From Nitrosopumilus sp. (lineage in GTDB: Archaea; Thermoproteota; Nitrososphaeria; Nitrososphaerales; Nitrosopumilaceae), in assembly GCA_965249555.1 (NCBI GenBank), contig OZ252243.1, forward strand, positions 992,001 to 1,056,000: 64,000 nucleotides of DNA. The letters run 5' to 3'. The notes beneath the pieces were generated by a model that was given only the letters and a program-made list of their open reading frames with translations, was not told where the DNA came from and made no database searches. Below, in pieces: positions 15,479-24,576 of the stretch. Each line of letters opens with the position of its first letter. Position 1 is the stretch's first letter. The position numbers were made by a program, and so were the translations under genes.

Positions 15479-16939
15479 ATGATATTTTTTGATATGAAAA
15501 AGGAGTTAACCTTTGCATTAAACTATGCATTAAACAAAGGATTCCAGATTCATCCAGATGCTTTTAAAATTTTAGAAAATTTTGATGTTAAAAAATTAGA
15601 GAAGATCATAAAAGAGATAGTTAAAGAAAAAACCAAACAAAAATTATTTCAGATCAACCAAGATGATTTAGAGATATATCTTGGAATTAAGGAGGACCTA
15701 ACTCTACAAAGTGAAATTAAAATATTATCTGATCCTACGAAAAAAATAACAACAGGTGAGGGAGTTAAAGGGTATAATGCATTATTTTCAAGTCGTTTTA
15801 ACAAGCTTAAAAGAATAATTTTAGATAGACCAGAATCAAAAAAACTCAAATCTATTGCATCTTTGAAAATCACAAAACAAGAAGGAGATACGTACGTCTG
15901 TGGTCTTATCACTTCAATAATTAGTGAGAGAAATATCTCAAAGTTGACTCTAGAGGACCCATCAGGCTTGTTTGAGGGTATTGTTTTTGATAATGAATTA
16001 CAAAAGACTGCAGGCACTCTTCTAACTGACCAATTTGTAATGGTAAGGATAGGTTTAGGAAAGAATTCTGGATTTATTATAAAGGATATAATTCTGCCAG
16101 ATATTCCAGATCAGGCTATCAACAAATCAGAATCTGAAGTGTATGCAGTCTTTCTTTCAGATCTTCATATTGGAAGTAAGTACTTCATGGAGGAGGAATT
16201 TATGAAATTTGTTTTGTGGTTATCAAGCCCAGATCCAGTTGCAAGAAAAATTCGTTTTGTCTTAATTGGAGGGGATGTAGTTGATGGAGTTGGAATATAT
16301 CCAAATCAGGATAAAGAGTTGGTTTGCCAGACCATTGAAGAGCAATTAAAAAAGACAGTTGGTTTGATTGAAAAGATTCCAAAAAATATCAAGGTCATTA
16401 TAATGCCTGGAAACCATGATCCTGGAAGAAGAGCCCTCCCACAGCCAGCCATACCAAAAAAATACAATTCAAGTTTATGGGAAATGGAAAATGTAGTAAT
16501 GGTTGGAAACCCAGCCGTAGTTTCATTGAACGGGGTAAAGATAATGATGTTTCACGGACAGAGTATTGATGATATTGTAAAGACCACACCTGGTCTAAGT
16601 TATGACAAACCAACAAATGTAATGAAACATCTTCTCAAGGCTAGACATCTAAGTCCAATTTATGGTAGTCAAACACCCATAGCCCCAGAGATGGAGGATC
16701 TTTTGGTAATTGAGGATATTCCAGATATCTTTCATGTAGGTCATGTTCATAGAGCAGAATTGGATATGTATAAGGGAATTTTATTGGTAAATTCGGGTTC
16801 ATGGCAAAAACAAACACCTTTCCAGGCTAGTGTTGGAATGACTCCGAACCCAGGAATTGCACTTATGGTAAATCTAAAAACTTTCCAAGTTCATTATGAA
16901 AATTATAATTTAGAGTTAGATAATATCCTTCAAAGTTAG
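15479..16939 (+). CDS. polD1: DNA polymerase D small subunit DP1
   Basis: SDLHIGS, GDVVDG, PGNHD, FHG, GHVH phosphoesterase motifs; OB fold. Confidence 0.95.
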   Translation: MIFFDMKKELTFALNYALNKGFQIHPDAFKILENFDVKKLEKIIKEIVKEKTKQKLFQINQDDLEIYLGIKEDLTLQSEIKILSDPTKKITTGEGVKGYNALFSSRFNKLKRIILDRPESKKLKSIASLKITKQEGDTYVCGLITSIISERNISKLTLEDPSGLFEGIVFDNELQKTAGTLLTDQFVMVRIGLGKNSGFIIKDIILPDIPDQAINKSESEVYAVFLSDLHIGSKYFMEEEFMKFVLWLSSPDPVARKIRFVLIGGDVVDGVGIYPNQDKELVCQTIEEQLKKTVGLIEKIPKNIKVIIMPGNHDPGRRALPQPAIPKKYNSSLWEMENVVMVGNPAVVSLNGVKIMMFHGQSIDDIVKTTPGLSYDKPTNVMKHLLKARHLSPIYGSQTPIAPEMEDLLVIEDIPDIFHVGHVHRAELDMYKGILLVNSGSWQKQTPFQASVGMTPNPGIALMVNLKTFQVHYENYNLELDNILQS

Positions 16940-18124
16940 ATCGTTTTTGAAGGTCTTTTTTATCATTTCAGATGAGATCGTAAGTTTGTATTTTTTTGTT
17001 CTACCATGAATTCCTTGGTGGACCAGTCTTCCAATAATGATTCCAGATAATTCAATTTCACTCAACATTTGTGTAGTTCTTCTTTGGGTTAGCTCATCCC
17101 GGCCAACTGTCTTGCAGAGATTTTTGTATGATGAGTAAATCTCTCCAGTTGAAGAGCCATTTGCCTTCATAATTGCAAGAATGACTAGTTTTTCATGAAG
17201 GGGATATGATTTTAGCGAGGTTTCCTCTTTGTTTTCTTCAATTTTTAGAGAAGCTTCTCTGACATGTTCAACTGTAACTTTGTTTGATTGTTGTCTTTCA
17301 GCAATCTCTCCTGCGACACGGATCAAATCAATTGCCCTACGAGCATCACCATGTTCTCCTCCTGCAAGTGCCGCACATAGATTTAGGGCAGGATCCTCAA
17401 CAGAATTCTCTACAAAGGCTTCGTTAATTCTCTCTTCAAGAATTGTTTTAATTTGTTCAACATTATAGTTGGTAAAGACAATCTCTTCCTCGCCAAGACT
17501 GCTAATTACTCTAGGATCTAGTCTTTCTTTGAATGTTAGATCATTTGAAATTCCCACCAAAGTTAGGGAACCTTGTTTTAATCGCTCATTTGCTCTTGTT
17601 AGTTGATATAAGATGTCTTTACCTGTTTTTGATACTAATTGGGCTAGATAGTCAATCTCATCAATTACAAAAATTGCGTTAAGTTTTCCTTCATCAATCT
17701 TATTGAGGAGTCTTTTGAAAACCTCACTTATTGCTAGGCCAGTTGTGGGTAATTCCTCCTTTCCTAGGTCTAATTGCCTGCCTAAACTAACTAATAATCC
17801 ATAGAGGGTTGTCTCTTCTTTAGAGTTGGAATAAACTAGTTTAATTGGGAAATTTGATTTTTCTACTCTTTCTTGAATTTTAGAAATTACTTTTTTTACA
17901 ACTAATGTTTTACCTATTCCAGGTTTTCCATAAACCAAAAGATTTGATGGTCTTGATTGTTTTAGTATTGGTAATAGTGATTGTGTAACTTGTTCTTGTT
18001 CAGAAGTTCTGTGTTGTATGGTATTTGGTATGTAGGTTGTTTGAAGAATATCTCTATTTTTTATTATAGATTCACCTGATTCTGCTGCATCAAGTAATCT
18101 ATCTATTGGATCAGACATACTCAC
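16916..18124 (-). CDS. cdc6: Orc1/Cdc6 replication initiator
   Basis: YGKPGIGKT, VIDEID, GDARRAIDL, C-terminal wH GIHGRT. Confidence 0.96.
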   Translation of the reverse strand: MSMSDPIDRLLDAAESGESIIKNRDILQTTYIPNTIQHRTSEQEQVTQSLLPILKQSRPSNLLVYGKPGIGKTLVVKKVISKIQERVEKSNFPIKLVYSNSKEETTLYGLLVSLGRQLDLGKEELPTTGLAISEVFKRLLNKIDEGKLNAIFVIDEIDYLAQLVSKTGKDILYQLTRANERLKQGSLTLVGISNDLTFKERLDPRVISSLGEEEIVFTNYNVEQIKTILEERINEAFVENSVEDPALNLCAALAGGEHGDARRAIDLIRVAGEIAERQQSNKVTVEHVREASLKIEENKEETSLKSYPLHEKLVILAIMKANGSSTGEIYSSYKNLCKTVGRDELTQRRTTQMLSEIELSGIIIGRLVHQGIHGRTKKYKLTISSEMIKKTFKNDLTLKDII

Positions 18125-18265
18125 ACACCTTTGTTTCCTATCAATAATATCATAACCATATCTAAATTAAGAGAGTAAAGAAGAGAACAATAACTCTAGC
18201 TTAGTTTGTAATTAATTATTTTTAGTTAGATTTTGATTTTCTTAAAAAAAAATTATAAAAAATAC

Positions 18266-18289
18266 AGAGTGGAAAGATTGGTGTGTGGG
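18266..18289 (+). promoter_or_regulatory. ORB-like box 1
   Basis: AGAGTGGAAAGATTGGTGTGTGGG. Confidence 0.6.
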
Positions 18290-18365
18290 TTGAATCTAAA
18301 TTTTACCTTAAAGTTAACATTTTGTTAATATCCTGCTATGGAATTATATAAAAAACCTATTTTGA

Positions 18366-18386
18366 CCCTTTAATTTCCATTCCAGG
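18366..18386 (-). promoter_or_regulatory. ORB-like box 2
   Basis: Minus strand CCTGGAATGGAAATTAAAGGG. Confidence 0.75.
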
Positions 18387-18427
18387 CGTTAAGATTGATG
18401 TTAACACTGTGAATATGCTTGAAACAA

Positions 18428-18447
18428 CCCCTTTATTTCCACTCCAA
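18428..18447 (-). promoter_or_regulatory. ORB-like box 3
   Basis: Minus strand TTGGAGTGGAAATAAAGGGG, close to archaeal ORB GTGGAAA-n-AAGGGG. Confidence 0.8.
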
Positions 18448-18608
18448 GCATAAATATTTCTTAATTAGAGGGGATTTTACATGAGATGTTGTTAATAATA
18501 AAAATATGACTAGGCGTGGCTTATGCAGTCAATGTTAACAAACAATCTAGTTAACAAACATTCTCGGATCAATTGAACTGTTAACATCTGATCCTTTAGA
18601 TCTCAAAG

Positions 18609-18995
18609 ATGGCTAAAAAACGTATTCGAATAGATATGGAGGACACAGATGGTGCACGATTTGACATCAAAATAGAAGGTAATGTCACCAGGGAAAAGGT
18701 TCTCAAAATATTTGAAATGATGGACTTGATGAATATTGAGGAAGAACACGAAACAACAAACATGGACTCAGTAGGCTCAAAAATTTGGCATATTGTGGAT
18801 AAATTCTTCCCAATGGGTAAATTTACCTCCACGACTATTCTTGAAAAATACGAAGATGAATTCAACGAACCAGTAAAACTTAGTGTAATATCGACCTATT
18901 TGTCACGTTTTTCATCAAAAGGTAGGATTGATAGGGTTAGAACAGGTCGTGAATGGACCTATCAAACCATTAAGATAAGCCAAAAACAACAATAA
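18609..18995 (+). CDS. Origin-adjacent protein with predicted C-terminal winged helix
   Basis: FTSTTILEKY..LSVISTYLSRFSSKGRIDRVRTGREWTY wHTH pattern. Confidence 0.8.
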   Translation: MAKKRIRIDMEDTDGARFDIKIEGNVTREKVLKIFEMMDLMNIEEEHETTNMDSVGSKIWHIVDKFFPMGKFTSTTILEKYEDEFNEPVKLSVISTYLSRFSSKGRIDRVRTGREWTYQTIKISQKQQ

Positions 18996-18999
18996 CCGA

Positions 19000-19161
19000 T
19001 TAAGAAATGGTTATTTTCCTAACAATTAACTGATCTTTTCCAAGAATCAACTTTACATATTCACCTTTTTGAATATCCATGTATTTTCTAAATTGTTTTG
19101 GAATAGAAATTGTCCCGGCTGAAGTGATTTTTACCAAAACTTCATTCTCTTGAACAGACAT
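19000..19161 (-). CDS. AbrB/MazE/SpoVT-family DNA-binding protein, not in ORF track
   Basis: Manual translation, 53 aa: MSVQENEVLVKITSAGTISIPKQFRKYMDIQKGEYVKLILGKDQLIVRKITIS. Confidence 0.88.
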   Translation of the reverse strand: MSVQENEVLVKITSAGTISIPKQFRKYMDIQKGEYVKLILGKDQLIVRKITIS

Positions 19162-19276
19162 ATTATTATTATAATTTTATAATATATATAATTTATAATT
19201 AATAATAAATTATTATGTTTCCATGAAAATTTGAATGAAAGGACAAAAATCTATTATGGTAAACTAAAAAAATTTC

Positions 19277-19879
19277 TTATGCAATAATTGGGTTAGTTTG
19301 AACGTCTTCAACCTTTGCTTTTCCCTTCTCAGTAATTGAATATGTGTATGGTTTAGTTTCTATATTTCTTTGAACATAACCACCATCAAATAATTTCTTC
19401 ATTAATCTTGAAGTATGTTCCCTACTTCTCTTTAATGTGATGTGTATGTCACGTGATGTCATAGTTTTGTTTGTGATTAATTGCAACACATAATCTGTTG
19501 GGTTTGTGTGATCTATACTAGAAATATTGGGTGTGGAAATTAGTTTTTCAGACCTTATTTTAGGTTGAATTACTTTTTCTACATTATTTTCTTCTGCTTT
19601 GTTATTTAACAACTTTTCTAAGAGTTGTTTTAATTCTAACTTAGAATCCTCTGTTTTAGGCTCAATTCCTTGAATTTCTAATGCATCTAGGCGTATTTTC
19701 ATATCAATTAACTGCCTTTCGTAGTACTCTAAACGCTCAGATTGTGGAACATCAGACATTTCACTTTTTGATTTAATGAATGGAAGTACTTTGTAAAACA
19801 CATACAATCCACCTAAACCAACTACAAATGCTAAAATCACACTCAAAATCACTTCAGGATCAGGAATTTCTACTAACAT
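19277..19879 (-). CDS. Membrane-anchored coiled-coil + winged-helix protein
   Basis: TM VILSVILAFVVGLGGLYVFY; coiled coil ERLEYYERQLIDMKIRLDALE; wHTH MTSRDIHITLKRSREHTSRLMKKLFDGGYV..Y.ITEKGK. ATG 19879 preferred. Confidence 0.85.
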   Translation of the reverse strand: MLVEIPDPEVILSVILAFVVGLGGLYVFYKVLPFIKSKSEMSDVPQSERLEYYERQLIDMKIRLDALEIQGIEPKTEDSKLELKQLLEKLLNNKAEENNVEKVIQPKIRSEKLISTPNISSIDHTNPTDYVLQLITNKTMTSRDIHITLKRSREHTSRLMKKLFDGGYVQRNIETKPYTYSITEKGKAKVEDVQTNPIIA

Positions 19880-20126
19880 CACAAATTTACGCCTATGTTG
19901 TGATTTATCGTGATTGAACAACATTATTTCACACTTTAGATTAACATACTGACACACATAATCACAAACACATCAACTACTTTTTGATATTTATCATCAC
20001 AAATATCACATATTACATGCCTTTCGAATAGTCATATCTATCACCCTAGTGATTTGTTCTTCTCTTTCTGGGAAGATATCACCATCATTCATCACACGAA
20101 TGTTCTCTGAAAGTTTGGATATCACA
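19436..20126. repeat. Dense ATCAC/GTGAT motif array (17 copies)
   Basis: Starts at 19437, 19453, 19473, 19508, 19836, 19848, 19878, 19900, 19910, 19961, 19996, 20005, 20040, 20049, 20078, 20091, 20121. Confidence 0.85.
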
Positions 20127-20368
20127 TCAATATCATCAGGTAAGAGTATGCCTAGACCGCGAAAAAGTATAATTGAATAGAATAATGCGATTAATTTCTC
20201 TCTAGATTGCCCAACTTGCCTATAATATGCTCCTCTTGTTATAGGAAATTTAGATTCTAGAAGATCCTTCTGATTTAAAATAATTTTAATTTGTCGCTCT
20301 GTAAATAGAGATTTTTTGATGATTTGGCGAATAATATTGTTAAAATTAGATTCTTTAGAGTCTGCCAT
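20006..20368 (-). CDS. Hypothetical protein with HTH-like N-terminus
   Basis: SLFTERQ..ITRGAYYRQVGQSREKL resembles a sigma-r4/LuxR-type HTH. Confidence 0.75.
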   Translation of the reverse strand: MADSKESNFNNIIRQIIKKSLFTERQIKIILNQKDLLESKFPITRGAYYRQVGQSREKLIALFYSIILFRGLGILLPDDIDVISKLSENIRVMNDGDIFPEREEQITRVIDMTIRKACNM

Positions 20369-20433: not shown

Positions 20434-21186
20434 ATGACTGGAAACAAAGTTGAATCGTTCCTAAAATCAGAATTAAAAAAGAAAAACGCATTGTTATTTG
20501 TTTTAATTGATTCTGAAGTATCACAATTACAGGCATCAAGCAAGCTTGCCAAAGATGTTGAAAAGATTGGTGCATCTGCAATCTTGGTTGGAGGCTCCTC
20601 AGCCACTGATCAGATTGAGATGGCTCAAGTGGTTAAAGGCATCAAAAAAGGTATTAAAATTCCAATAATCTTGTTTCCTGGAAATGTCACAGGCGTTGTG
20701 CCTGATGCTGATGCAATCCTATTTAGCTCCCTAATGAACTCAGAAAATCCATACTTTATCACACAAGCACAAGCATTGGGAGCCCCAAGTGTTCTCAAAT
20801 TTGGTTTAGAACCACTTCCAACCGCTTATTTGGTGATTGGAGATGGAACCTCAGCTTGGTTTGTTGGTTCTGCACGAGGAATTCCTTTTGAAAAACCAAA
20901 AATTGCTGCTGCATATGCCCTTGCCGCTCAATTTCTTGGAATGAGATTTGTATATTTAGAAGCAGGTTCTGGTGCAAAAACTAGTGTTACTCCAGAGATG
21001 GTCAAAACAGTAAGGCGTGCTTTTAATGGATTCTTGATAGTAGGAGGAGGAATCAAAGATGTAAAAACTGCCCAAAACTTGGTCAAAGCAGGAGCCGATG
21101 CTTTGGTAATTGGTACATTCCTTGAAAAAGGAGGAAGCATCAAAAAACTCCAAGAAATAGCAAAAGTAATTCAAAGAAGCAAGTAG
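20434..21186 (+). CDS. Geranylgeranylglyceryl phosphate synthase
   Basis: ILVGGS, ILFPG, YLEAGSGA, IVGGGI, VIGT. Confidence 0.93.
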   Translation: MTGNKVESFLKSELKKKNALLFVLIDSEVSQLQASSKLAKDVEKIGASAILVGGSSATDQIEMAQVVKGIKKGIKIPIILFPGNVTGVVPDADAILFSSLMNSENPYFITQAQALGAPSVLKFGLEPLPTAYLVIGDGTSAWFVGSARGIPFEKPKIAAAYALAAQFLGMRFVYLEAGSGAKTSVTPEMVKTVRRAFNGFLIVGGGIKDVKTAQNLVKAGADALVIGTFLEKGGSIKKLQEIAKVIQRSK

Positions 21187-21198
21187 TAGAATTGTATC

Positions 21199-24100
21199 AT
21201 GTCAGATAACGATGCAATTTCTCGTATTAGTGATATTAAGATGCCAGATTATTATCATGATTACTACTCAAATCTTTCAAGTGAAACAGTTTCCATCTTT
21301 GAGAAAGCAGCAGTTGCAAAATCAAGTTTGGTAGACTCTTCAGGTATAATTGAACCTAAAATCGCATTTGATTTGGCAGATCGTGTTTCCAAAATGCACG
21401 AAATTGATATTGCTGAACCTCTTAGAGAACTACTAAAAACAAACGGGAAGGAACTCTCTGCACTTATTTTATCAAAAGAAATTGCTCTTGGTGAATACTC
21501 TCTTTCTGATGCTACCTTAGAAGACAAACTAGATCTTGCAGTTCGTGTAGGGTTAGCCATTGTTACAGAAGGAGTAACCATCGCGCCTTTACAGGGAATT
21601 AGTGAAGTAAAAATCAAGAAAAACAAAGATGGCACTGAGTATCTTTCAGTTTCTATTGCAGGACCTATGCGTTCAGCAGGAGGAACAGAATCTGCTGTAA
21701 CAATGTTAATTGCAGACCATGTTAGAAAAGCAGTTGGTTTAACAAAATACCAAGCAAATTCATTTGATGATGAAACTGGTAGATTTGTAGAGGAATTACG
21801 AATCTATGAAAGAGAGGCCAGTAGTTTTCAATTTCATATTTTAGATGAAGATATCGAACATGTCATTTCTCACCTTCCAGTCGAATTAGATGGAGTAGAT
21901 ACGGATCCATTTGAGGTTGTAAATCACAAATCAATGATTCGCATCAAAACTGATAGGGTTAGAGGTGGCGCTTTACGTGTCTTAAATGATGGATTGATTG
22001 GAAGATCCAAAAAACTTCTCAAAAGGATTGAACTATACAATCTAGATGGTTGGGAGTGGCTTAATGATCTTAAAGGTGTAGTTCAAACAGGTGAAAATCA
22101 GGAAGACGCAGCTGCTAAAAGAATGCGTGAAGTAATTACAGGAAGATCAGTCTTATCTATGCCTAAAAAGTTAGGTGGATTCCGATTAAGATATGGAAGA
22201 GCATGTAATACAGGCTTTGCAGCAGTTGGAATTCATCCCGTAGTAGGTGAAATTTTAGATCATACCATAGTTGTAGGAACACAAATCAAAATTGACATTC
22301 CAGGAAAAGGAGCAACTATTGCTTTTGTTGATTCTATTGATACTCCAATAGTTCGCCTAAAAAATGGCAATGTTGTAAAGATTAGAGACATTAAACATGG
22401 ATTAGAAATTAAAAATGAAATTGAAAAAATCCTACACTTGGGAGATATACTAATTTCATTTGGAGACTTTCTTGAAAATAATGCTCAACTTATTCCTTCA
22501 GGGTATGTTGAAGAATTTTGGATAGAGGAACTAAAACAAAAAATCCAAAAATATGAACCTGATGATCAGTATCTAAAACAATTTCTGACTAGAGTACCCA
22601 CAATAGATGAGGCACTGAAAATTTCCCTTGACTTTCAAATTCCACTTTATCCACATTATCTATATTTCTGGGATAAAATCTCATCAAAAGAACTTGGTCA
22701 ACTTTTAGAACCAAAACAAGTTACTGAAACATCAATTGAATACTTTGTGGAAATAAAAAAAATCCTTGAAAAATTGGGCACTCCTCATAAAGTTGAAAAT
22801 GAAACTATAGTCCTAGAAAATCTAGAGGCAAAAATTTTCTTTAATTTATTGTTTAGAGAAAAACCAACAATTAGTGATTTGTCAGTTCCAAAAATTTTAA
22901 CAAAATCATCAGGAATTCAAATTAAAAATAAATTTTCAACATCTATTGGGGTTCGAATTGGAAGACCTGAAAAAGCAGCTGCTAGACAAATGAAACCTCC
23001 TACACACATATTATTTCCAATTAGTGACAAAGGAGGACCTACCAGAGATCTTCTAAAGGCATCAAGAAATGAACACTTCTTTACTAACATATTCAATAGA
23101 CATTGTGACCAATGTAATGAACCCTCTATAGGCATCAAGTGCTCTAGATGTGGCACTAAAACAACAATTTACTACAAATGTTCTAACTGTAGAGACACTC
23201 TTACTGAACCATATTGTGAAAAATGTAAACGCAAAGTACAAACTCACTCACACAAAGAATTTCCACTAAAAACAAAATTACTATCAGCTCAGGAAAAAAT
23301 GGGATTACGTGTCAAAGAACCATTCAAAGGCGTCAAAGAGCTAATTAATCAAGATAGAATTGCTGAACCTCTAGAAAAAGGAATTACACGTCAAAACTTT
23401 GGGCTTACAGTCTTCAAAGATGGAACTGTTAGGTTTGATGCAACAAATTCTCCCTTAACCCAATTCAAACCATCATGGATTGGAACATCGATAGAGAAAC
23501 TAAAGGGGCTTGGATATTTTCACGACATAGATGGGAAACCACTTACAAACTTAGAACAGATTGTTGAACTTCGTATGCAAGATGTGATAATTCCGTATGA
23601 TAGTGGAAATTATTTGGTTTCTACTTGTAAATACATTGATACTCTTTTAGTGAAATTCTATGGAAAATCTTCATTTTACAATGTAAAGAATACTGAAGAG
23701 CTTATCGGCCATCTAGTAATTGGCTTAGCTCCACATACTTCTGTTGGAATAGTAGGACGAATCATTGGATATACTGAAACACATGTTTGTTTTGGAACTC
23801 CAAACTGGCACTCTGCAAAAAGAAGAGATGCTGATGGTGATGCTGATTCTATTATGCTTCTTATGGATAGCTTACTTAATTTCTCAAGACAATTTCTTTC
23901 TGATAGAATAGGTGGGCTAATGGATGCTCCATTACTTGTGCAACCTCTAGTTTTACCACATGAATCTCAACCACAAGCACACAATCTTGAAGTCACAAAG
24001 TATCTTCCTTTAGAATTCTTCGAGTCCACATTTCAACAGAACAAAGCATCAGATATAACATCTGTAGAAATTATCAAGTCACGTCTTGAAACTGAAAGGC

Positions 24101-24576
24101 AATTTTATGATTATTTCTTTACACATTCAACTTCATCACTAACCACTTCAAAATCTCGTAGTGCCTACTCTACACTTGGCTCAATGCTTGACAAATTTGA
24201 TATGCAAATTAGAAATGCTGAATTAATTGATGTGGTAAATCCTTCAGAAATTGTTTCAAATGTCATTTCAACACATCTGGTTCCAGATATTATGGGAAAT
24301 CTTAGAGCATACGCTAGACAAAACTTTAGGTGCACAGGTTGTGGAAAATCATTCCGTCGGATGCCTCTAATTCAAACATGTGTATGTGGTCATAAACTAA
24401 TTCCTACAATTACCAGAGGCTCTGTTGAAAAATATCTAAAACTTGCAAAAAGACTTGTTGAGAAATATGATGTTGGTGAATATCAAAGAGGAAGAATTCA
24501 TGCTCTATCAGACGAAATTGAATTAGTATTTGGTAAGAGTAAAGGAGACCAATCACTTCTTACTGATTACGCCTAG
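21199..24576 (+). CDS. polD2: DNA polymerase D large subunit DP2
   Basis: AGPMRSAGGT, GGFRLRYGR, FKDGTVRFD, AKRRDADGDAD, C-terminal Zn finger; no intein seen. Confidence 0.97.
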   Translation: MSDNDAISRISDIKMPDYYHDYYSNLSSETVSIFEKAAVAKSSLVDSSGIIEPKIAFDLADRVSKMHEIDIAEPLRELLKTNGKELSALILSKEIALGEYSLSDATLEDKLDLAVRVGLAIVTEGVTIAPLQGISEVKIKKNKDGTEYLSVSIAGPMRSAGGTESAVTMLIADHVRKAVGLTKYQANSFDDETGRFVEELRIYEREASSFQFHILDEDIEHVISHLPVELDGVDTDPFEVVNHKSMIRIKTDRVRGGALRVLNDGLIGRSKKLLKRIELYNLDGWEWLNDLKGVVQTGENQEDAAAKRMREVITGRSVLSMPKKLGGFRLRYGRACNTGFAAVGIHPVVGEILDHTIVVGTQIKIDIPGKGATIAFVDSIDTPIVRLKNGNVVKIRDIKHGLEIKNEIEKILHLGDILISFGDFLENNAQLIPSGYVEEFWIEELKQKIQKYEPDDQYLKQFLTRVPTIDEALKISLDFQIPLYPHYLYFWDKISSKELGQLLEPKQVTETSIEYFVEIKKILEKLGTPHKVENETIVLENLEAKIFFNLLFREKPTISDLSVPKILTKSSGIQIKNKFSTSIGVRIGRPEKAAARQMKPPTHILFPISDKGGPTRDLLKASRNEHFFTNIFNRHCDQCNEPSIGIKCSRCGTKTTIYYKCSNCRDTLTEPYCEKCKRKVQTHSHKEFPLKTKLLSAQEKMGLRVKEPFKGVKELINQDRIAEPLEKGITRQNFGLTVFKDGTVRFDATNSPLTQFKPSWIGTSIEKLKGLGYFHDIDGKPLTNLEQIVELRMQDVIIPYDSGNYLVSTCKYIDTLLVKFYGKSSFYNVKNTEELIGHLVIGLAPHTSVGIVGRIIGYTETHVCFGTPNWHSAKRRDADGDADSIMLLMDSLLNFSRQFLSDRIGGLMDAPLLVQPLVLPHESQPQAHNLEVTKYLPLEFFESTFQQNKASDITSVEIIKSRLETERQFYDYFFTHSTSSLTTSKSRSAYSTLGSMLDKFDMQIRNAELIDVVNPSEIVSNVISTHLVPDIMGNLRAYARQNFRCTGCGKSFRRMPLIQTCVCGHKLIPTITRGSVEKYLKLAKRLVEKYDVGEYQRGRIHALSDEIELVFGKSKGDQSLLTDYA

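Follow-up and report, generated by a model that had tools for sequence, protein, structure and literature searches.

What does a group of small DNA-binding protein genes do at the edge of an archaeal replication origin? The question is raised by a 64,000-nucleotide stretch of the Nitrosopumilus sp. genome (contig OZ252243.1, positions 992,001–1,056,000; G000:C1:992001-1056000; genome size 2.23 Mb), referred to below as the window, in whose positions the locus is described. Here four open reading frames (ORFs), named O1 to O4, lie beyond the intergenic region that carries the origin (oriC) and adjoins the orc1/cdc6 initiator gene. An earlier note on this DNA had described four DNA-binding genes with two clustered motifs and proposed that a membrane-anchored member tethers the origin. 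The explanation favored here, to which we give a probability of about one half as a whole, is that the block represents an ancient module of three DNA-binding proteins (O1, O3, and O4) beside oriC, and that its two motif arrays would be binding sites of these locally encoded proteins.

Two motif arrays at the origin

Genes were placed from the ORF list and a Pfam scan of the window. The features that carry the argument, including four origin recognition boxes (ORBs), are as follows; wHTH stands for winged helix-turn-helix and TM for transmembrane.

18119–18291, no strand: oriC core, ORB1 and ORB2 around an AT-rich stretch (inverted repeat, low GC, conservation in the genus)
18119–18139, plus strand: ORB1, one arm of the inverted repeat
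18266–18291, inverted: ORB2, the other arm of the inverted repeat
18313–18586, no strand: motif-1 array, TGT[G/T]AA / GTTAAC(A) (k-mer scan, genome clustering, genus alignment)
18366–18388, plus strand: ORB3, CCCCTTTATTTCCACTCCAGG type, read from the sequence and conserved in the genus alignment
18427–18449, plus strand: ORB4, CCCCTTTATTTCCACTCCAGG type, read from the sequence and conserved in the genus alignment
18609–18995, plus strand: O1, 128 residues, C-terminal winged helix
19000–19161, minus strand: O2, 53 residues, AbrB/SpoVT fold
19277–19879, minus strand: O3, 200 residues, N-terminal TM helix and C-terminal wHTH
19436–20126, no strand: motif-2 array, TGTGAT/ATCACA, 11 copies against about 1.5 expected
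19836–20126, no strand: dense core of the motif-2 array, 8 copies in 300 bp
20006–20368, minus strand: O4, 120 residues, all-helical, upstream of O3 on the same strand

All four ORFs were found where the earlier note had placed them, except that the start of O3 is revised to the ATG at 19879 rather than 19957.

Judged by its sequence, the 484-bp intergenic region between orc1/cdc6 and O1 is built like an archaeal origin. ORB1 and ORB2 form a 20-nt inverted repeat (80% complementary) on either side of an AT-rich stretch (about 18140–18265) that is likely the unwinding element, and the GC fraction of the composition window 18000–18399 is 0.278. This core block is kept in all nine aligned genus sequences. 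According to reviews, N. maritimus has a single mapped origin, and according to its genome paper the ORB repeats of that species adjoin its cdc gene. The cumulative GC skew of the present genome turns at 1,025,036 (about 33036 in the window), about 15 kb from the cdc6 origin. The turn is a maximum, not a minimum, and the lowest values fall at the record ends; an origin at this locus would imply a C-rich leading strand, the reverse of the usual bacterial convention.

An unbiased k-mer scan, with the whole genome as reference, picked out both motifs; the earlier note had not named them, and had described two short motifs clustered over the genes. Both arrays are borne out, and no denser cluster of either hexamer occurs in the genome, but motif 1 lies in the intergenic DNA formed by oriC and the O1 upstream region, not over genes. 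Its sites are at 18313, 18323, 18399, 18408 (TGTGAA), 18490, 18533, 18550, and 18579. The hexamer GTTAAC occurs five times in 273 bp (18313–18585; 0.07 expected), with 20 copies in the window and 327 in the genome, where the next best 300-bp stretch holds three. In its relaxed form, TGT[G/T]AA, the motif is matched 11 times (0.7 expected) over the 400 bp that precede O1. The sites are interleaved with the ORBs: 18313 and 18323 come after ORB2, 18399 and 18408 abut ORB3, and 18490 comes after ORB4. Sites 18533 and 18550 form a pair spaced 16 bp, and the last site occupies positions −30 to −23 relative to the O1 ATG, the place of a TATA box for a leaderless mRNA. Three GATC-containing elements (GGATCA, TGATCC, and AGATCT; 18566–18604), largely kept in the nine-sequence genus alignment, bracket the last GTTAAC site before the O1 start. 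Only two other places in the genome have three GTTAAC copies in 300 bp (1148204–1148438 and 1476150–1476295), and the ORFs beside them have no obvious link to replication. Counting pairs as well as triplets, 14 GTTAAC clusters lie elsewhere in the genome, next to unrelated ORFs with no common theme visible.

The core of the motif-2 array is the top TGTGAT/ATCACA cluster genome-wide (next best, 4 copies per 300 bp) and spans the 3′ end of O4, the O4–O3 intergenic region, and the promoter and start codon of O3. Read along the O4/O3 direction, direct TGTGAT repeats occupy the last third of O4 and the O4–O3 spacer. A GATAAAT that resembles a TATA box, at −30 to −24 of O3, has ATCAC elements on either side, and TGTGATG includes the start codon of O3. 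The copies inside coding sequence are reflected in codon choice. Val-Ile and Val-Met pairs of O3 and O4 are encoded T-GTG-AT (hyphens at codon boundaries) in three to four of five to eight cases per genus locus, and in 4/6 cases in the distant locus L024. This usage is far above the 7.3% (218/2973) found for such pairs genome-wide and suggests that the coding copies are kept by selection on the DNA, bearing in mind that the related genomes are not independent.

The remainder of the block is made up of the neighboring genes. As described earlier, O1 to O4 lie between cdc6/DP1 and the geranylgeranylglyceryl phosphate (GGGP) synthase and DP2 genes. The full order is DP1, orc1/cdc6, the intergenic region, O1, O2, O3, O4, GGGP synthase (GGGPS), DP2, and serine hydroxymethyltransferase (SHMT).

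15479–16939, plus strand: DP1 (ORF list and Pfam scan)
16916–18124, minus strand: orc1/cdc6 initiator, divergent from O1 (Cdc6_lid 1.8e-24, Cdc6_C 2.3e-19)
20434–21186, plus strand: GGGP synthase, divergent from O4 (PcrB 1.2e-51)
21199–24576, plus strand: DP2 (ORF list and Pfam scan)
after DP2, minus strand: SHMT (ORF list and Pfam scan)

Folds of O1 to O4 and their predicted sites

The earlier note had read a wHTH protein, an AbrB-fold protein, a TM protein with a wHTH, and an HTH-like protein at 18609, 19000, 19277, and 20006, respectively. The first three assignments agree with the results below, the first by way of structure modeling. For the fourth, the ORF and a helical model were obtained, but the likeness to an HTH is weak.

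The best sequence family of O1 is Penicillinase_R/CopY, with all scores under the cut-offs: Penicillinase_R (PF03965) at E 0.004 and 17.9 bits (cut-off 22.6), and CopY (TIGR02698) at 17.7 bits (cut-off 121.95). An AlphaFold2 (AF2) model made from an 18-sequence alignment (mean predicted local distance difference test score, pLDDT, 74.7) comprises an N-terminal β-hairpin and helix (pLDDT about 60–65), followed by a C-terminal winged helix resembling that of BlaI/CopY (pLDDT about 90). The top VIA match of the model is the Fur DNA-binding domain (Z 11.2, root-mean-square deviation [rmsd] 1.9, 70 residues), and a Foldseek search of the PDB gave generic winged-helix repressors only (E≥3e-3). The winged-helix fold of O1 is supported by these structure matches. 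For a possible kinship with WhiP/Cdt1, there was no CDT1 match in Pfam and no support in one literature search. Homologs of O1 carry only the source name “hypothetical protein,” and among 8000 candidates scored for longer or fused forms there was one partial match, covering 34% of the query.

O1 resembles the BlaI/MecI/CopY repressors in its winged helix, and those proteins read TGT/ACA-containing operators over their own promoters. The operator of the Penicillinase_R/CopY family is given as TACAnnTGTA (PMC7253601). O1 differs from them in that its wHTH is C-terminal, after a distinct β-hairpin domain, in its sub-cut-off scores, and in having no protease or metal-sensing partner. O1 is assigned here to motif 1, tentatively, because this family with its TACAnnTGTA operator is the closest, and because O1 is the one protein that always accompanies motif 1. 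This includes two loci (L078 and L079) in which O1 is preceded by a GTGAAC/GTGAAT pair, with no ORB, cdc6, or O3 in the vicinity.

O2 contains a looped-hinge-helix of the AbrB/MazE/SpoVT type, above cut-off for both PF04014 (35.1 bits versus 24.7, 1.3e-08) and TIGR01439 (36.9 versus 28.3, 2.1e-09). By tblastn it is present in 9 of the 20 loci of the order, all nine within the genus, and O2 is a genus-restricted addition to the block. An AT-only near-palindrome with 27-nt arms (74% complementary; 19163–19208) lies upstream of O2 and downstream of O3, and could be an operator of the former or a terminator of the latter.

In O3, one TM helix at the N terminus is joined by a helical linker to a MarR-type wHTH at the C terminus. 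It scores above cut-off for HTH_27 (PF13463, 26.4 bits versus 22.2), and a Bathyarchaeia-type ortholog does so for MarR (PF01047, 29.6 bits versus 24.6). The hydrophobic N-terminal segment is kept in 16/16 aligned orthologs. About nine residues precede the TM helix and would lie outside the membrane; acidic residues before the helix and lysines after it predict, by the positive-inside rule, an N-out/C-in topology that places the wHTH in the cytoplasm. Five residues of the C-terminal domain (R154, E155, H156, R159, and K162; R-E-H-x-x-R-x-x-K) are invariant in 16/16 sequences. In an HMMER alignment that falls short of significance (E 0.12), this helix (ksREHtsRlmKkL) pairs with CSREMVGRVLKSL, the recognition helix of Vfr, a member of the CRP family. 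The best PDB match of the O3 profile is a ParB HTH (4umk, E 0.083), followed by 6s6h (E 0.51), neither of them significant.

Direct base contacts and specificity in E. coli CRP come from the triad Arg180/Glu181/Arg185 (PMC2677863). Since the invariant R-E-x3-R of O3 resembles this triad, which reads TGTGA, and since TGTGA is also the core of the motif-2 array, O3 is assigned to motif 2, by analogy as in the case of O1. The likeness to CRP/FNR extends to the associated motif TGTGAT, which forms palindromes in two other loci (L026 and L028, see below). Unlike CRP/FNR, O3 has no cNMP_binding domain in a Pfam scan, and Pfam places it with MarR/HTH_27.

The AF2 model of O4, a protein to which neither motif is assigned, has five helices (pLDDT 80), interpretable as a possible LuxR/sigma-r4-like HTH (residues about 19–70) plus a C-terminal helical hairpin. 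Pfam holds no family for O4 or for 10 of its orthologs, a Foldseek search of the PDB returned nothing at E≤0.001, and no PDB sequence was matched by the O4 profile at E≤10. The top VIA match, the DNA-binding domain of LuxR-type EsrB, is weak (Z 6.0, rmsd 3.6, 59 residues), covers residues 19–77, and is tied with unrelated helical matches. An Atlas search provided a lead only (score 0.82), to a cluster with Sigma70_r4 in 14% of its members.

Conservation of the block and of its motifs

A profile of O1 was searched against 201 genomes of the class (a tally that includes one unpublished genome, G147) and 251 of the phylum. Matches were found in 193/201 class genomes (176/178 of those of high quality), nearly always one per genome, and in 167/251 phylum genomes, where whole families have none (0/19, 0/11, and 0/9, for example). 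O3 was matched in 38/41 relatives. The cdc6 gene adjoins O1 in 40 of the 52 loci that were fetched, and in the 1 kb before O1 the density of ORB-like matches is 4.23 per kb, versus 0.14 elsewhere (53 loci; overlapping regex matches inflate both densities).

Within the order, O1 and O3 are adjacent in 20/20 loci, O4 is detected by tblastn in 16/20, and a divergent cdc6 stands beside O1 in 16/20; the other four stretches run out at the record end, 0.34–2.4 kb beyond O1. All 12 loci taken from the other orders of the class have cdc6 next to O1 (once across the junction of a circular record), and both O3 and O4 adjoin O1 in seven. O3 is missing beside O1 in four of these 12 and lies about 6 kb off in a fifth. 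In other classes, cdc6 adjoins O1 in 12/20 loci, one O1 there being identical to a protein sourced as Candidatus Bathyarchaeota archaeon. Four of the remaining eight (L076, L077, L083, and L095) still have clear ORBs beside O1, with no cdc6 within 6 kb. O1 also keeps its contact with O3 (L076, L077, and L095) or O4 (L082) where cdc6 is not adjacent. The linkage of the orthologs to cdc6 or oriC thus extends across the class and into Bathyarchaeia.

Five other-class genomes in which O1 is not beside cdc6 were searched for cdc6 (G248/L078, G234/L079, G311/L082, G241/L085, and G381/L083); they encode two to three Orc1/Cdc6 paralogs, and probably have several origins; in G381, O1 adjoins an ORB pair that has no adjacent cdc6. 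In a Bathyarchaeia-type locus (L081:6486–9060), a NurA-like gene (E 9.4e-4, sub-cut-off) and a HerA-like gene (DUF87, 9.8e-13) lie between O1 and O3, and the spacing in L084 and L094 indicates a HerA/NurA-type insertion at the same place. The SHMT homolog appears in two tblastn pieces, broken at about residue 55, in loci of different lineages (L069:2137–3476, L073:12880–14198, and L087:11828–12365), which could be an artifact of the alignment or reflect a changed frame or a small insertion.

Both arrays stand out as phylogenetic footprints within variable flanks among nine aligned genus sequences, the motif-1 sites forming conserved islands. GTTAAC is present in 3–5 copies in the homologous spacer of 11/11 other genus loci. 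At the same positions, other families and classes have GTTCACA/TGTGAA, which differs by one base, and pairs are frequent (TGTGAAgtcTGTGAAg, for example). In the recurring layout, the TGTGAA pair follows an ORB at a distance of about 55 nt, and another site precedes the O1 start by 25–50 nt. Over the 400 bp before O1, TGT[G/T]AA is enriched at P<0.01 in 40/53 loci: 12/12 in the genus, 7/9 in other families of the order, 10/12 in other orders of the class, and 11/20 in other classes. TGTGAT (P<0.01, 600-bp window at the O3 start) is enriched in 27/41 loci, with the proviso for both counts that related genomes are not independent and that per-locus P values overstate the support. The motif-2 count includes the Bathyarchaeia-type loci in which HerA/NurA genes part O3–O4 from O1. 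TGTGAT/ATCACA is enriched over O3–O4 in 11/11 other genus loci, and in 5/9 loci of other families (P<0.003), the four weaker ones being those in which tblastn found no O4. Palindromes occupy the O3 promoter region in other families, TGTGATATCACA in L028 and TGTGATatATCACA in L026, of the form TGTGAT(N0-2)ATCACA.

Competing readings of the module

The genes, their folds, the two arrays, and the conservation and linkage of these rest on observation, whereas the pairing of protein with array and every proposed function are inferences. If the arrays are read by the proteins assigned to them, the block could work as follows. O1 would sit at TGT[G/T]AA (GTTAACA in the genus) next to ORB2, ORB3, and ORB4 and across its own core promoter, so repressing itself and occupying oriC beside Orc1/Cdc6 as an origin accessory factor. 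Autoregulation is the most economical function of the proximal sites, given that these lie over the expected core promoters. The additional motif-1 sites between the ORBs, together with the tendency of O1 to stay with the ORBs, suggest that O1 also occupies the origin. The cytoplasmic wHTH of O3 would bind the TGTGAT array over its own transcription factor B recognition element (BRE)/TATA region and start codon and into the neighboring coding sequence. DNA 1.6–1.9 kb from the unwinding element would then be held at the membrane, and O4 may assist.

For the origin role of O1 the nearest parallel is UBP, which binds the ucm element in oriC1 of Sulfolobus and is required for origin activity (Dhanaraju et al. 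2025, PMC12141716). In the accessible text of that paper, UBP is confined to Sulfolobales and Desulfurococcales, and its authors ask about analogs in other lineages. Like UBP, O1 would be a small sequence-specific binder, distinct from Orc1/Cdc6, with sites within the origin. The two are set apart, as far as the published description of UBP goes, by fold, UBP being a β-rich saddle that contacts DNA through β-hairpins and the O1 model a winged helix. They also differ in the position of the sites (the unwinding element contains ucm, whereas O1-type sites are next to the ORBs and the O1 promoter) and in genomic context, UBP having >300 genomic sites and a gene that the same text does not describe as origin-linked. 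We infer that O1 may be comparable to UBP in role, not in fold.

Several observations weigh against the module as a whole. The pairing of proteins and motifs draws on analogy and on matches below threshold (E 0.08–0.13, with O1 under its Pfam cut-off). Outside the genus the two motifs share the TGTGA core, and it is possible that one protein reads both or that O4 is a reader. Enrichment fell short of the P threshold in 13/53 loci for motif 1 and 14/41 for motif 2. O1 is not beside cdc6 in 8/20 other-class loci; three of these (L078, L079, and L085) have neither cdc6 nor an ORB-like match beside O1, and the ORB-like matches of L082 looked spurious. In loci where some 3 kb more separate O4–O3 from O1, the TGTGAT array is found with this gene pair and not with the ORBs, as plain autoregulation would have it. 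Finally, the conserved block also includes GGGPS, DP2, and SHMT, so that the linkage to oriC may be inherited gene order.

Inherited gene order is a serious rival. On that account the proteins would be small transcription factors of the ordinary kind, which regulate themselves locally and have targets outside replication, and their position at oriC would be a mere legacy of gene order; we consider this a minority possibility. The sites of both arrays fall where a BRE/TATA element and a transcription start are expected, the GTGAAC/GTGAAT pair of L078 and L079 precedes O1 with no ORB or cdc6 nearby, the metabolic genes GGGPS and SHMT are among the equally conserved neighbors, and the homologs are all annotated only as hypothetical proteins. 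Such an account has to accommodate conserved motif-1 sites between the ORBs, 200–300 bp from the O1 start, and the four loci with O1 beside ORBs and cdc6 elsewhere. A near-universal protein with mostly one match per genome would also be unusual for an accessory regulator.

The model of the earlier note, in which O3 binds an array 1–2 kb from oriC and anchors new origins to the membrane for segregation or positioning, with O1, O2, and O4 as accessory centromere-type binders, is in our view unlikely. None of the three outcomes that the note listed as refuting its idea was obtained, the genes being linked to cdc6 or oriC and both motifs being conserved. Part of the model stands: O3 has a conserved TM helix, a cytoplasmic wHTH, and a CRP-like helix, and its gene lies beside a TGTGAT array. 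No strong TGTGAT cluster exists elsewhere in the genome, the linkage of the module to oriC spans the phylum, and coding copies of motif 2 apparently maintained by codon choice go beyond the needs of a simple operator. The best PDB match of O3, though non-significant, is to a ParB HTH, and the 2024 review (PMC7617429), in its accessible text, describes no segregation system for this lineage. The part that fails to find support is the function, nothing among the results showing tethering or segregation and some sites of both arrays overlapping the expected core promoters of O1 and O3, as is usual for an autoregulatory operator.

Among bacterial and archaeal segregation systems, RacA has a DNA-binding domain, a coiled coil, and a membrane-proximal anchor, and RacA/ram, ParB/parS, and SegAB share with the present locus an origin-proximal site array and a locally encoded DNA-binding protein. 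The RacA/ram sites are dispersed over the origin-proximal chromosome, whereas here a single compact cluster covers the promoter and start codon of O3 itself, as autoregulation predicts, and moves with O3–O4 when HerA/NurA genes separate O1 and O3. O3 is also anchored directly, by its own TM helix, in contrast to those systems. A Pfam search of O1 to O4 gave no ParBc match at E≤1. The earlier statement that no ParA-type ATPase is visible in the window agrees with searches for PF13614 and PF01656, which, for ParA/SegA-type genes, gave no match in the window and matches only elsewhere in the genome. The nearest, to PF01656, is at genome position 935204, about 57 kb before the window start. The five other-order loci in which O3 is missing beside O1 or lies about 6 kb off likewise speak against tethering.

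DNA-binding domains tethered to the membrane by a TM helix are known from ToxR and CadC in bacteria and from ArnR in Sulfolobus. Like these, O3 would bring its target DNA to the membrane. It differs from them in having an N-terminal TM helix, about nine outside residues, and no sensor domain, and its predicted sites are at its own gene beside oriC. Another reading is that O4 and O3 form a sensor of membrane status that controls the divergent gene for GGGP synthase, and with it archaeal lipid synthesis, in the manner of a membrane-bound lipid regulator. O4 and GGGPS are divergent and 65 bp apart, they lie within about 0.5 kb of each other in 15 of the 16 order loci with a tblastn O4 and in several loci outside the order, and O3 is membrane-anchored. 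The 65-bp intergenic region itself holds no TGTGAT/ATCACA copy, O3 and O4 occur with no GGGPS nearby in L076, L077, L082, L088, and L095, and the short external segment of O3 offers no obvious sensor domain; the reading is very unlikely. That the GTTAAC cluster serves as a set of methylation sites (HpaI-type palindromes) for origin sequestration, like GATC and SeqA in E. coli, is suggested by its palindromic form and its clustering only at oriC but is extremely improbable, given non-palindromic GTTCACA/TGTGAA at the same positions in other families and classes and no depletion of GTTAAC in the window (20 observed versus 12.5 in dinucleotide-preserving shuffles).

A literature search found no description of O1–O4-type proteins or of either motif in Thaumarchaeota, the primary paper on the N. 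maritimus origin being outside its scope and possibly already noting the repeats. In its accessible text, the 2024 review (PMC7617429) calls archaeal cell-cycle control “still not well understood” and describes SegAB-type segregation for Sulfolobus only. The control of origin firing and chromosome segregation outside Sulfolobales is an open question, and the present locus offers candidates for both. O1 is a near-universal small winged-helix candidate whose gene and predicted sites lie in or beside oriC, from marine ammonia oxidizers to Bathyarchaeia, and O3 is a membrane-anchored candidate partner whose gene has its own site array. With TGT[G/T]AA and TGTGAT as predicted motifs, and with contact residues predicted for O3, these hypothetical proteins can be tested directly. 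It is tempting, if doubtful, to go further and see in O1 an origin accessory factor of Nitrososphaeria and Bathyarchaeia that gates Orc1/Cdc6 or MCM at each ORB, while O3 and O4 hold the TGTGAT array at the membrane and couple initiation and positioning to the envelope. Were this so, initiation and origin positioning would be tied to the envelope in archaea that have no ParABS/SegAB-type system at the origin.

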